A stretch of 24,000 nucleotides of DNA, from contig JBBRYO010000008.1 of the NCBI GenBank assembly GCA_038237595.1, positions 3,828-27,827 of the forward strand, read 5' to 3'. A model generated the notes under the pieces. The model did not search any database. It saw only the letters and a program-made list of their open reading frames with translations, and had not been told where the DNA came from. Source of the stretch: Candidatus Limnocylindrales bacterium. Its GTDB lineage: Bacteria; Chloroflexota; Limnocylindria; Limnocylindrales; CSP1-4. The first letter of the stretch is position 1. Each line of letters starts with the position of its first letter. Of this stretch, positions 3,959 through 9,477 are shown piece by piece. The position numbers and the translations under genes were made by a program.

Positions 3959-3974
<16 letters not shown>
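3132..3974 (-). CDS. Protein-tyrosine phosphatase, Y_phosphatase3-like (CX5R active site)
   Basis: NARDLGG motif and HCHAGKDRTG (HCxAGxDRT P-loop). Only the 3' part of the 537-aa ORF is credible. There is no ATG/GTG/TTG in frame between the secA stop (3959) and the conserved domain, so the nearest canonical start is GTG at 3974, inside the secA 3' end. Confidence 0.8.
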
Positions 3975-7000
<3,026 letters not shown>

Positions 7001-7009
7001 GGGACGGGA

Positions 7010-7015
7010 AGTATA
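7010..7015 (-). promoter_or_regulatory. Candidate -10 box (TATACT) 9 nt upstream of the secA ATG, which would give a leaderless or near-leaderless mRNA
   Basis: The minus strand reads cgcgccTATACTtcccgtcccATG. No SD lies between the box and the ATG. No convincing -35. Confidence 0.3.
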
Positions 7016-7045
7016 GGCGCGGAGCTGTTTTCCCGGCCTTACCCC

Positions 7046-7074
7046 TTGAGCAAGAGCGCCTCCCTCCCTATACT
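7046..7074 (+). promoter_or_regulatory. Candidate sigma70-type promoter for the Cys-rich ORF/prfB operon
   Basis: TTGAGC (7046-7051), 17-nt spacer, TATACT (7069-7074). Sits in the 164-bp secA-divergent spacer. Confidence 0.4.
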
Positions 7075-7164
7075 CGGTCAAACCCGCCGGAGGTAGCCCT
7101 CCAGCGTCGTCATACGGTCGGGGTCCTGCCCAGATCCCGACCCTGTGAGGGGAGAGAGGGTGTT

Positions 7165-7416
7165 GTGAAGCCGTTCCCGGCGGTGTCGACCGAGGTTGAG
7201 CTCGGCGATGAATCGTTCACCGATCTCATTGCCTGCGAGCGCGATTGCCGCAGCTGCAGTTACGCGGCATGGCTCGATTGCGACGGCAACTGTGGAGTCT
7301 GCCCCCACAACGGCTATTGTCCGTGTGTGAACCCCGTCGTCGCTCGGAGCAAGACCGCGTTGAAGATCATCGAACTGCGGCCGATCCTGCTCCAGGACCT
7401 TCGCGCGAGGAACTAG
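7165..7416 (+). CDS. Hypothetical cysteine-rich small protein (83 aa; C-x3-C-x2-C-x7-C-x3-C-x2-C-x5-C-x-C)
   Basis: GTG 7165 lies 4 nt after the purine tract GAGGGGAGAGAGGG (7147-7160). 66 of 83 codons end in G/C by hand count. Sequence: VKPFPAVSTEVELGDESFTDLIACERDCRSCSYAAWLDCDGNCGVCPHNGYCPCVNPVVARSKTALKIIELRPILLQDLRARN. TAG 7414-7416 is immediately followed by the prfB ATG. No family recognised. Confidence 0.6.
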   Translation: MKPFPAVSTEVELGDESFTDLIACERDCRSCSYAAWLDCDGNCGVCPHNGYCPCVNPVVARSKTALKIIELRPILLQDLRARN

Positions 7417-8530
7417 ATGGAGCACGCGCTCATCCGCGACCTCGCCGCTCGGATCCATGCGACCTCGGGGAGGCTTTGACCTCCCCGTAAAGGAAGAGCG
7501 CCTGCGGGCGCTCGACGAGCAGACCAGCGCACCCGATTTCTGGTCCGACCAGCGCGCGGCCCAGTCCGCTCTGCGCACGGCCGAGAGCCTGCGGGACGAG
7601 CTCGGGACGTGGCAGGACCTTCGCTCGCGCGCGAACGACCTGCTGGAATTGGCCGACCTGGCAGACACGGATCCCGAGCTGGAGTCAGGCGTGGAGGGCG
7701 AGTACGAGACGCTCTCCCGGGACTACGACACGCACCGCACGAGCCTGCTGTTCAGCGGTCCCTACGACGATCGCAGCGCGATCATCTCGATCAGCGCCGG
7801 TGCGGGCGGCACCGAAGCCACCGACTGGGCCGAGATGCTCCTTCGCATGTACTTGCGCTGGGCTGAGCGGCACCGCTACGGGACGGAGATCCTCGACCAG
7901 CTCGAAGGCGAGGAGGCCGGCCTGAAGAGCGCCACGGTCGCGGTCGAGGGACCCTCCGCCTACGGCTTCCTGCGCGCCGAGCGTGGCGTGCACCGCCTGG
8001 TGCGCATCAGCCCGTTCGACTCGCAGAAGCGGCGCCACACCACCTTCGCGCTGGTGGAGGTGCTGCCCGAGGTGGCCGATGACACGGAGGTCGGCGAGAT
8101 CCCGGACGACGATCTCAAGATCGACACGTTCCGCGCGCAGGGAGCGGGCGGGCAGCACGTCAACAAGACCGACTCGGCCGTTCGCATCACGCATCTCCCC
8201 ACCGGCATCACCGCGCAGAGCCAGAACGAGCGGTCGCAGCACCAGAACCGCGAGCTCGCGATGAAGATCCTGCGGGCGCGGCTGCTGGAGCAGCGCATCG
8301 CGGAACGCGAGAAGGATCTGGCGAAGCTGCGGGGTGAACACGTGGAAGCCGGCTGGGGCAACCAGATCCGCAGCTACGTCCTCCACCCCTACCAGATGGT
8401 CAAGGACCACCGCACCGAGCACGAGACCAGCGACACGGCCGGGGTACTCGACGGGGAACTGGATCGCTTCATGCTCGCCGAGCTCGAGCGCCTGGCCACC
8501 GAGAGCGGAGTGGGGGCGGACGCAGCTTGA
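7417..8530 (+). CDS. prfB: Peptide chain release factor 2, made by programmed +1 frameshift: join(7417..7476,7478..8530)
   Basis: Frame 0 reads MEHALIRDLAARIHATSGRL then in-frame TGA (7477-7479). The +1 frame continues DLPVKEERLRALDEQTSAPDFW... and contains the RF2 SPF tripeptide (RISPFDSQ) and GGQ (AGGQHVNKTDSAVRITH). GAGGAA sits 4 nt upstream of the ATG. Confidence 0.95.
7466..7480 (+). promoter_or_regulatory. RF2 autoregulatory +1 frameshift site (internal SD-like GGGG, 3-nt spacer AGG, then CTT TGA C)
   Basis: tcGGGGAGGCTTTGAC aligns position by position with E. coli AGGGGGTATCTTTGAC: the GGGG run, a 3-nt spacer, the slippery CTT, TGA and the following C. Confidence 0.9.
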
Positions 8531-9477
8531 GCCGCGCCGCGCCCGCATACCGGCCCATCGAGCCGGCCGACATCGAAGCCTGCCTCGAGATCTTCTACGC
8601 GGCCTCGGAGGACCTCCACGCCCGGCAGGGCCAGCCTGTACTGCCGCGCAACCCGAGGCGATTGCGCGCCCTGTTCGAGCACCTGTTGAGGACAGACCCC
8701 GAGCGGGCGTGGCTGGCGGAATCGGGTGCCGGCGGTGTGCCCGTCGGCTTCGGCATGGCCCACCGGCGCGACGGTCACTGGTTTCTGGCGTTCCTCTTCG
8801 TGCTGCCCGACTGGCAGGGGCAGAAGATCGGCCGCGAGCTCGTCGAGCGCTGCCTGCCGCCGGCTGCCGAGCGCGACCGGATGGCCGTGTGCGTGGAGTC
8901 CGTGCAGCCGGTCTCGACCGCGCTGTACACAACGTTCGGGATGACGCCACGGGTGCCGCTCTACGTGATGACGGGGTCGCTGAAAGCGGGCGCGCTGCCG
9001 GATGGGGCGAACTCACCGGGCGGGCTCGAGGCGCTCGCCTTCGAGGCGCTCGCCGGCGACGGGCCCGGCGGCCACGCGCAGCTGGCAGCTCATGTCGGGA
9101 CGCTCGATCGCGAGCTGCTCGGTTATGAGCGGCCCGAGGAGCACCGCTTCTGGCGGACGCTCGAGGCGAAGGGCTTCCTGTACTTCCGAGGCGGCGAGAC
9201 GGAGGCGGCCGGCTACGGCTACGCGGAGGCGAGCGGGCGAGTGGGTCCCGTGGCCGTCCGGGACCCCGATCTTCTGCCCAACGTCCTCGGCCACCTCGTG
9301 CGGGTCGTGAAGCCGCTGGGCGGTTGGCAGGTGATGGTGCCAGGCCCGGCGCGCGAGGCGTGGCTGCCGCTGCTCGGGGCCGGGCTGCGGATCGACGGCC
9401 CACCGGCGATCTACAGCTCAACCTGGGCTGGCCCGCCGTTCGACCGCTACCTGCCCCTCAACTTCGCGCTGCTGTGA
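8527..9477 (+). CDS. GNAT-family N-acetyltransferase (N-terminal GNAT fold plus a C-terminal domain)
   Basis: YRPIEPADIEACLEIF...FLFVLPDWQGQKIGRELVERCL (Q/RxxGxG/A-type acetyl-CoA loop). TTG 8527 is the only plausible start and overlaps the prfB TGA (cTTGA). Confidence 0.8.
   Translation: MSRAAPAYRPIEPADIEACLEIFYAASEDLHARQGQPVLPRNPRRLRALFEHLLRTDPERAWLAESGAGGVPVGFGMAHRRDGHWFLAFLFVLPDWQGQKIGRELVERCLPPAAERDRMAVCVESVQPVSTALYTTFGMTPRVPLYVMTGSLKAGALPDGANSPGGLEALAFEALAGDGPGGHAQLAAHVGTLDRELLGYERPEEHRFWRTLEAKGFLYFRGGETEAAGYGYAEASGRVGPVAVRDPDLLPNVLGHLVRVVKPLGGWQVMVPGPAREAWLPLLGAGLRIDGPPAIYSSTWAGPPFDRYLPLNFALL

Follow-up and report, generated by a model that had tools for sequence, protein, structure and literature searches.

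An eight-cysteine mini-protein encoded ahead of prfB in Limnocylindria: a presumed metalloprotein family with a possible tie to release factor 2

In a 24,000-nucleotide (nt) stretch of the genome of a Candidatus Limnocylindrales bacterium (NCBI GenBank assembly GCA_038237595.1, contig JBBRYO010000008.1, positions 3,828 to 27,827 of the forward strand; the whole stretch is called the window below), prfB, the gene of release factor 2 (RF2), is preceded by a short cysteine-rich open reading frame (ORF). The locus raises the question of whether this ORF is a gene, what kind of protein it would encode and whether its place beside prfB has a meaning. A sequence-only reading of the window had described an ORF from GTG 7165 to TAG 7416 (+ strand) with 83 sense codons, 66 of which end in G or C, and a recount gives the same coordinates and numbers, the stop codon occupying 7414–7416. 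Its other observations are likewise reproduced: the eight Cys at residues 24, 28, 31, 39, 43, 46, 52 and 54 fall within 31 residues and form two CX3CX2C units followed by CPC, the purine-rich Shine-Dalgarno (SD) tract GAGGGGAGAGAGGG at 7147–7160 (+) is separated by 4 nt from GTG 7165, and TAG 7414–7416 abuts ATG 7417 of prfB in a TAGATG junction. The ORF is referred to here as the Cys8 gene and its product as the mini-protein. As judged from the comparisons given below, the mini-proteins may form a family of small metalloproteins that are made together with RF2 and act with RF2 or with the ribosome, a reading that we hold tentatively, at a little under even confidence.

The length of the ORF and the G/C content of its third codon positions (GC3) alone are not beyond chance in the window, which is 68% GC and where 7 kb hold 51 ORFs of at least 50 amino acids, and the Cys8 ORF is accepted as a gene because of its conservation, not because of length or GC3. 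A word-indexed search of protein clusters formed at 90% identity yielded 499 clusters homologous to the mini-protein and another search yielded 692, with more than 1,000 protein clusters overall, and when 1.84 billion representatives were scanned exhaustively with phmmer, 59 clusters emerged at the 50% level. At least 593 species encode a relative, as counted in a scan with one genome per GTDB species.

Over the 60 codons from D20 onward, compared in 80 genomes, pS is 0.57 and pN is 0.069 (pN/pS 0.12), the Jukes-Cantor dN/dS is 0.067, and the minor-allele fractions at codon positions 1, 2 and 3 are 0.067, 0.040 and 0.30, correspondingly. The same third-position pattern is found separately in the Cys core (variability of 0.051, 0.050 and 0.317 at the three positions) and in the C-terminal tail (0.094, 0.044 and 0.296), indicating that the tail is constrained as a protein and not as an RNA element. 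The reading frame is unbroken in 167 of the 167 loci examined. Purifying selection of this kind, together with the invariant Cys, bears out the claim of a real small protein, and the 83-codon ORF is almost certainly a protein-coding gene. None of the outcomes named beforehand as speaking against the sequence-only reading appeared: orthologues show no frameshifts, premature stops or Cys losses, and no profile match turned up. The exact TAGATG junction and the TAG stop, though, vary across the family.

A chance ORF in GC-rich DNA, or a constraint that stems from an RNA element or from the antisense ORF at 7078–7668, could be considered, as spurious long ORFs are common in this DNA and a 196-residue antisense ORF covers the same nucleotides. 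Variability at the third position is, however, 5–7 times that at positions 1 and 2 in the + frame, which along with the dN/dS value and the intact frames effectively refutes this explanation and leaves it hardly any probability. The start codon and the SD are also conserved, with a GAGGGAGAGAGGG-like tract and a GTG AAG CCG start kept in 11 of 12 aligned loci, and Rfam has no match in 6800–7700. Two ORFs run antisense over the Cys8 and prfB genes, 7078–7668 (196 amino acids) and 7685–9421 (578 amino acids), both on the minus strand; they are regarded as artefacts of GC-rich DNA because the codon-position pattern supports the + frame.

The purifying selection on the mini-protein is very strong, and stronger than that on RF2. 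The 60 residues of core and tail have a mean pairwise identity of 88%, whereas RF2 from these genomes reaches 70%; in 600 sampled genome pairs, the mini-protein exceeded RF2 in conservation in 99.8% of cases. It is among the most conserved small proteins of Limnocylindria.

The family comprises three subfamilies (A, to which the window protein belongs, B and C) and one singleton, with mini-protein lengths of 65–103 residues. They share an invariant core, CEx2Cx2C-x7-CDGxCx2C-x5-CPC, in which the Cys module spans 31 residues. In the window protein the acidic N-terminal segment (residues 1–19; 7165..7221, +) is variable and poorly conserved in alignments, and it is absent in subfamily C and in the singleton, which have 6 residues ahead of the first Cys. 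The invariant core (residues 20–55; 7222..7329, +), presumed to be the metal-binding domain, reads DLIA-C-ERD-C-RS-C-SYAAWLD-C-DGN-C-GV-C-PHNGY-C-P-C-V. It is followed by a basic C-terminal tail (residues 56–83; 7330..7413, +), NPVVARSKTALKIIELRPILLQDLRARN, with a net charge of +4 as computed from V55. The tail is 27–29 residues long and carries a net charge of +2 to +4 in all three subfamilies and in the singleton, while its sequence differs between subfamilies and is almost invariant inside each of them. The minimal protein therefore consists of about 6 residues, the 31-residue Cys8 module and the tail. A tryptic peptide to be expected from the mini-protein is, for example, TALKIIELRPILLQDLR.

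Besides all eight Cys, residues I22, E25, Y33, L37, D40, Y51 and P53 are invariant in 150 sequences from the three subfamilies. S32 and G41 are invariant in an alignment of 59 sequences and over 90% conserved in the alignment of 150. His48 is replaced by Arg in subfamilies B and C and is therefore not a conserved ligand. Subfamily A is represented by ...DLIACERDCRxCSYAAxLDCDGNCGxCPHNGYCPCVNPVVARSKTALRIIELRPxLLQDLRARN, subfamily B by ...YEDLIxCERDCMRCSYAxTLDCDGNCGxCPRQxYCPCVNPAKxRSK...ELPxV..LGRN and subfamily C by MKEWIVCEDNCLKCSYGATLDCDGDCPRCPRNTYCPCVTFVSFAAGKLAPVAQPVTTTFERPRKR. One subfamily C protein, P0167, from a 1254-nt Logan contig, has a 100-residue N-terminal extension with SHLRDCERC, an H-x3-C-x2-C ZAS-like motif; the extension is probably a gene call that has run into the upstream gene.

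The most divergent member, P0175 (MKEWIICEQDCLQCKYGATLECDGICERCDRILHCPCLQVQTEPVKVEVLRAIRKYENGRNKRNIG), is encoded on a contig of 50% GC (locus L085, JGI 3300009943) and is a singleton among 5.8 billion clusters. A search with P0175 for a cultured or annotated relative returned none. The contig comes from an organism of much lower GC content, in which the prfB start still overlaps the Cys8 gene and a gene with a zf_Tbcl zinc finger lies nearby.

The absence of a known family, which the sequence-only reading had suspected, is supported by searches of Pfam, NCBIfam, PHROGs and the PDB, the last with sequences and profiles, none of which gave a credible match. The window protein matches no Pfam and no NCBIfam family at E <= 10. 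The 59 members searched against Pfam at the same threshold gave only stray matches, to Rsm22 (E = 0.3) and FeoB_associated (E = 6.9), and a single GH1 match that comes from an over-extended gene call. Subfamily representatives have no NCBIfam and no meaningful PHROGs matches. Against the PDB, the best phmmer match is at E = 0.29 and the best match of the family profile, to a beta-galactosidase fragment, is at E = 3, neither being credible. All copies with a name in the databases are annotated as "hypothetical protein", and the mini-protein is not described in any paper that literature searches on Limnocylindria and on a cysteine-rich ORF ahead of prfB brought up. It founds an undescribed family with a Cys pattern that is new to the libraries searched; its gene has been called in many metagenome-assembled genomes (MAGs), but the literature found gives it no name, model or discussion. 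In broad kind, as a small Cys-rich presumed metalloprotein co-expressed with a translation factor, it is familiar.

The genomes with matches are nearly all MAGs labelled Chloroflexota, Candidatus Limnocylindrales or Limnocylindria, and one copy, from a Candidatus Limnocylindrales MAG (locus L001), is 99% identical to the window protein. Within the reach of these searches, the family does not extend beyond the class Limnocylindria of the Chloroflexota, and viral contigs contain no relative of the mini-protein. A few copies carry other labels, namely Patescibacteria, Saccharimonadales, Methylomirabilota and Alphaproteobacteria (locus L069; P0253, found in loci L086 and L087; P0311; P0314). The neighbourhood was inspected for P0253, and both loci have the order secA-Cys8-prfB-ftsEX-ctpB-smpB typical of Limnocylindria; in L069 the Cys8 gene is followed by a prfB frameshift site. 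The copies under other labels are probably mis-binned contigs. Limnocylindria are an abundant, ancient and wholly uncultivated class found in soils, sediments and lakes (PMC13212565).

The mini-protein most probably binds metal, since eight invariant Cys are crowded into 31 residues of a presumably cytoplasmic protein with few hydrophobic core residues. The eight thiolates would hold the metal and so organise a fold with little regular secondary structure. Three arrangements can be envisaged: a pair of Zn(Cys)4 sites; a Zn-thiolate cluster with bridging ligands, to which E25 and D40, located directly after the first Cys of their respective repeats, might contribute; or two Fe-S clusters with 3+1 ligation, in which each CX3CX2C unit would be joined by one Cys of the CPC.

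The spacing of the Cys, two CxxxCxxC units and a CxC, is not that of ferredoxins, zinc ribbons, WhiB or ZAS proteins, as the sequence-only reading had also held, and several partial likenesses are nevertheless evident. Ferredoxins with two [4Fe-4S] clusters are similar in size (~55–80 residues), in having eight Cys in two triads with remote fourth ligands, and in a Cys-Pro after the triad. They carry the motif CxxCxxCxxxCP twice, as opposed to CxxxCxxC twice plus CxC in the mini-protein, and the 59 members gave no match to a Fer4 family, nor did the family profile find one in the PDB. The ZAS motif H-x3-C-x2-C of RsrA has the same i, i+4, i+7 ligand spacing, which places the ligands on one helix face, and the first unit, C24-x3-C28-x2-C31, falls in a possibly helical stretch. 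Unlike ZAS proteins, the mini-protein has Cys in place of the defining His, a duplicated motif and then the CPC, and it lacks an anti-sigma domain, a zf-HC2 match and a neighbouring sigma-factor gene, its neighbours being secA and prfB.

In clusters of the CXC/tesmin, pre-SET, GAL4 and metallothionein type, several Zn ions are held by bridging thiolates. The mini-protein resembles these clusters, including the Zn3Cys9 of pre-SET, in its density of Cys and in its Y-C-x-C element (Y51-C52-P53-C54). Domains of the CXC and pre-SET type are eukaryotic and associated with DNA or chromatin, differ in spacing and contain 9 Cys compared with 8 here, and no profile match to them was obtained. The comparison with thiolate clusters may serve as a lead only.

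Two further candidates were tried and rejected. The CDGSH/mitoNEET family was suggested by the CDG element and a matching 15-residue span. Its motif is C-x-C-x2-(S/T)-x3-P-x-C-D-G-(S/A/T)-H, and an hhalign comparison of the family profile with human mitoNEET gave a probability of 0.2% over 6 aligned columns; the zf-CDGSH profile had no match. Radical SAM enzymes carry CxxxCxxC within a partial TIM-barrel domain of ~200 residues or more; the mini-protein contains CxxxCxxC twice, but it has 65–83 residues and no Radical_SAM match. The spacing of CX3CX2C type also recalls peptides that are handled by radical SAM enzymes, and a small, Cys-dense product might be the precursor of a ribosomally synthesised and post-translationally modified peptide (RiPP), SCIFF/ranthipeptide-like, or of a secreted disulfide-knotted peptide. 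Such a precursor is very improbable here: its neighbourhood lacks a constant maturase, transporter or protease gene (the genes seen are secA, lgt, nfi, prfB, GNAT and ftsE/ftsX), no signal peptide or leader/core split is found, no RiPP-precursor family of NCBIfam or Pfam is matched, and the near-invariant sequence across hundreds of species is the opposite of the variability of RiPP cores. Taken together, RiPP-type and artefact explanations retain a marginal share of the probability.

What ties the mini-protein to translation is its position. In all of the ~160 loci with enough downstream DNA, the Cys8 gene lies directly upstream of the +1 frameshift site of prfB, and in every one of them the CTTTGA of this site is found 37–144 nt beyond the Cys8 stop. 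In subfamily A the distance is 59–99 nt in 79 of 80 loci, the contig of the 80th ending too early. The prfB start lies between -26 and +42 nt relative to the Cys8 stop, with one outlier at +81; it overlaps the stop, adjoins it or comes shortly after it in 79 of 80 genome loci and in every metagenome locus with enough downstream DNA. In subfamily A it is mostly at +2, giving a one-base overlap (TGATG or TAGTG), or at +3 (TAGATG or TAGGTG), with one clade in which it lies 22–42 nt downstream of the stop. Most subfamily C loci have it at +6 to +16 from the first base of the stop, the outlier (locus L115) belonging to this subfamily. In subfamily B a TTG start of prfB precedes the Cys8 stop by 11 nt, so that the ORF ends in ...LGRN and prfB begins with MDEI, and in the singleton the prfB ATG lies 26 nt before the stop.

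The upstream neighbour is not constant: secA on the minus strand in the window, secA on the plus strand in subfamily B, two lgt genes in subfamily C and nfi, encoding endonuclease V, in the singleton. Whatever gene lies upstream, the Cys8 gene comes first in a unit of two genes, with prfB as the second. The placement between secA and prfB given by the sequence-only reading is correct for the window as to position, but secA (3959..7000) is on the minus strand, divergent, and does not belong to the same transcript. The Cys8 ORF is therefore the head of its own divergent transcription unit and not a spacer inside a secA-prfB operon.

A putative promoter of the Cys8-prfB transcript, TTGAGC-17 nt-TATACT at 7046..7074 (+), was located by a consensus scan; the TTG of its -35 element and the -10 TATACT are invariant or nearly so in 12 subfamily A loci, in which the flanking DNA is unconserved. 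No terminator on the + strand was found between the Cys8 ORF and prfB in a scan of 6900–8700. The conserved promoter-like site, the lack of an intervening terminator and a prfB start at or near the Cys8 stop support the earlier suggestion of co-transcription and coupling with prfB. From the anatomy of the loci, both co-transcription and coupling by termination and reinitiation appear well supported, and ribosomes that end the mini-protein would re-initiate on prfB, yielding both proteins from one mRNA. A putative SD-like element of prfB, GAGGA at 7407..7411 (+), lies in the last Cys8 codons, 5 nt before ATG 7417.

Two forms of direct joining of the proteins were considered and rejected. Fusion to RF2 by read-through or frameshifting would be conceivable in the window, where the frames of the two genes coincide, but in other loci the frame relation is mixed, with offsets of +2, +3, +6 to +10 and +22 to +42. 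Database proteins that look like natural fusions of the mini-protein with RF2 or another domain (P0130, P0135, P0147, P0148, P0165, P0189, P0263, P0265 and P0347) are frameshifted, chimeric or over-extended gene calls, and all they show is that the Cys8 gene adjoins prfB.

The stop codon of the Cys8 gene shows a bias in subfamily A, where it is TAG in 64 and TGA in 14 of 80 loci that are not phylogenetically independent, as compared with 26% TAG and 71.5% TGA in neighbouring genes (n = 438). In subfamily C there are 47 TGA, 33 TAG and 3 TAA (n = 83), so that TAG is at most a tendency of one subfamily, and its role as a conserved regulatory feature was rejected. UAG is read by RF1 only, and an upstream cistron terminated by RF1 would keep the delivery of ribosomes to the prfB start independent of the supply of RF2, an appealing arrangement for a gene that regulates itself. 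The excess of TAG in subfamily A may reflect selection for RF2-independent termination beside the prfB start, or phylogenetic inertia.

These features could also belong to a cis-acting regulatory upstream ORF (uORF), the translation of which, or stalling of its nascent chain or at its termination, would set the initiation of prfB, with the peptide itself being secondary; such a uORF might sense the supply of cysteine, metal or release factor. SecM is a regulatory ORF before secA, and stalling on TnaC acts on RF2-mediated release. Like these precedents, the Cys8 ORF lies immediately upstream of a translation or secretion gene to which it is coupled, its stop falls on or beside the prfB start in nearly all loci, and the RF1-specific TAG of most subfamily A loci would insulate prfB from RF2 shortage. 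Arrest peptides are, however, characterised by a C-terminal arrest motif and a fixed geometry to the regulated start, whereas conservation across the subfamilies resides here in the Cys core, the residues at the C-terminus, which would fill the exit tunnel at termination, differ completely, and selection acts at the amino-acid level over the whole 60-residue stretch. The varying stop codon, the varying spacing to the prfB start (-26 to +42 nt) and the SD-like GAGGA that prfB has of its own add to making a primarily cis-acting role improbable.

The reading preferred here is that the mini-protein is itself the functional product and works with RF2 or with the ribosome, since prfB stays linked to the Cys8 gene however the flanks are rearranged and both proteins would come from one shared mRNA. 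A functional partnership with RF2 or translation is proposed tentatively from this genomic arrangement, at a level somewhat short of an even chance. The mini-protein would then be an accessory or modulator of termination or of ribosome rescue, and its basic tail would contact RNA or RF2.

The closest functional analogues are the rescue factors ArfA of E. coli, BrfA of B. subtilis and ArfT of Francisella, which are proteins of ~40–72 residues, dependent on a release factor, restricted to their lineages and mutually unrelated in sequence (PMC6881298). ArfA, BrfA, ArfB and SmpB sense the empty mRNA channel by means of positively charged C-terminal extensions (PMC6881298). Like ArfA, BrfA and ArfT, the mini-protein is small (65–103 residues), lineage-restricted and genetically tied to RF2, and it ends in a basic tail of 27–29 residues with a charge of +2 to +4. 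Unlike the mini-protein, the three factors are not known to have a cysteine cluster or to be encoded beside prfB, and they share with it neither sequence similarity nor a Pfam match at E <= 10. ArfA and BrfA are produced from non-stop mRNAs, owing to an internal RNase III site or a terminator, and are repressed by trans-translation. Factors of this type bring RF2 to ribosomes whose mRNA channel is empty and set off release without a stop codon; the mini-protein's connection with such an activity is its genetic linkage to prfB.

Another comparison is offered by Trm112, a small Cys4 zinc protein of eukaryotes and archaea that activates the release-factor methyltransferase Mtq2. Trm112 is thereby functionally tied to a class-I release factor, and the mini-protein, likewise small and Cys-rich, is linked to one genetically. 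Unlike the mini-protein, Trm112 has CxxC knuckles and belongs to Pfam Trm112p; the mini-protein has no such match and no constant methyltransferase neighbour.

A more specific form of the preferred reading, and a rather doubtful one, is that the mini-protein might be a lineage-specific RF2 cofactor, in which a metal-cluster module, possibly sensing redox state or metal, is combined with the basic tail, is made in stoichiometric amounts with RF2 and modulates or extends RF2 activity on the ribosome. It could, for example, serve stop-codon-independent rescue or quality control, as a new answer to a problem that was solved independently in the evolution of ArfA, BrfA and ArfT. As a corollary, the RF1-specific UAG stop would insulate prfB initiation from RF2 shortage in most subfamily A genomes.

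Several points weigh against a role with RF2 or the ribosome. Nothing but synteny with prfB links the mini-protein to termination, and genes may share an operon because they need the same expression level and not because their functions are related; moreover, the loci were chosen for carrying the mini-protein, and the linkage to prfB was counted among them. Compared with RF2 of B. subtilis and E. coli, RF2 is canonical and has no lineage-specific insertion or docking site, the window RF2 aligning end to end with both structures without large indels. If the tail touched universally conserved rRNA, its divergence between subfamilies would not be expected. The canonical RF2 and the divergent tail also count against simple membership in the class of ArfA and BrfA, as does the lack of a + strand terminator in the Cys8 ORF, which must be transcribed through to prfB. 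AlphaFold2 gave no usable model, with predicted local distance difference test (pLDDT) scores of 46 from 59 sequences and 51 from 150; the alignment is shallow in information, with an effective number of sequences (Neff) of 2.3, and the fold probably depends on metal. Finally, all genomes with the Cys8 gene are MAGs of a class that is uncultivated (PMC13212565).

An alternative is a housekeeping metalloprotein with no mechanistic tie to RF2, either a mini ferredoxin-like carrier or a buffer or chaperone of zinc or another metal, for which the position on the prfB mRNA would serve only constitutive, growth-linked expression. Eight Cys could hold two [4Fe-4S] clusters in 3+1 ligation or several Zn or Cu ions, RF2 has no peculiarity, and unrelated genes do share operons with translation factors, as does the GNAT gene that overlaps the prfB stop in the window. 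On the other hand, the linkage to prfB, including the overlap of start and stop, is kept through flank rearrangements in four divergent subfamilies, no Fer4, metallothionein or other metal-family match was obtained for the 59 members at E <= 10, and it is hard to see what an electron carrier would do with a basic tail of conserved length. This explanation is possible but on the unlikely side.

The coupling to prfB leads to the hypothesis that class-I release factors of bacteria may work with a metalloprotein partner of their own. If a role with RF2 or the ribosome is true, the mini-protein would be a new player in termination or ribosome rescue and might tie termination to the metal or redox state of the cell. 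If it is false, the mini-protein still represents a new, very small Cys8 fold, presumed to bind metal, on which current structure prediction fails, and a clean example of an orphan gene that became fixed in one lineage and is kept under extreme constraint.

The presumed transcript has a leader of 82 nt, and the minimum free energy (MFE) fold of 7081–7170 is at -41.2 kcal/mol (z = -2.8). This fold contains a stem-loop of the 5' untranslated region at 7088..7105 (+), with CCGGAGG and CCTCCAG arms, just past the presumed transcription start. The GC-rich hairpin has a consensus of 9 pairs across 10 loci, 3 of the pairs showing compensatory changes, and a role in mRNA stabilisation or regulation is a guess. 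Apart from the promoter hexamers and this one hairpin, the DNA upstream of the SD is unconserved.

A GGGGAGG CTT TGA C type signal is the classical recoding site of prfB and an already known feature. In the window, frame 0 of prfB (7417..7479, +) consists of 20 codons (MEHALIRDLAARIHATSGRL) and an in-frame TGA, and the programmed +1 frameshift site (7467..7480, +) is composed of the internal SD GGGGAGG followed by CTT TGA C. The RF2 body in the +1 frame (7478..8530, +) contains the PCRF and RF-1 domains with the SPF and GGQ motifs, and scores 472.6 bits with TIGR00020 against a cut-off of 370.

Downstream, the GNAT acetyltransferase gene (8527–9477) has a TTG start that overlaps the prfB stop at 8527–8530 and may be a third coupled cistron in the window genome. 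Subfamilies B and C have ftsE/ftsX or a YtxH gene in its place after prfB. The divergent secA, which is not a constant part of the unit, encodes on the minus strand a SecA of 1013 amino acids with five SecA domains in Pfam. Its C-terminal part, at 3959–4400 (-), includes a low-complexity linker of ~130 residues rich in Ala, Gly, Ser and Pro, which is placed between the wing/scaffold domain and a C-terminal SEC-C zinc motif (CWCGSGKKFKKCHGA).

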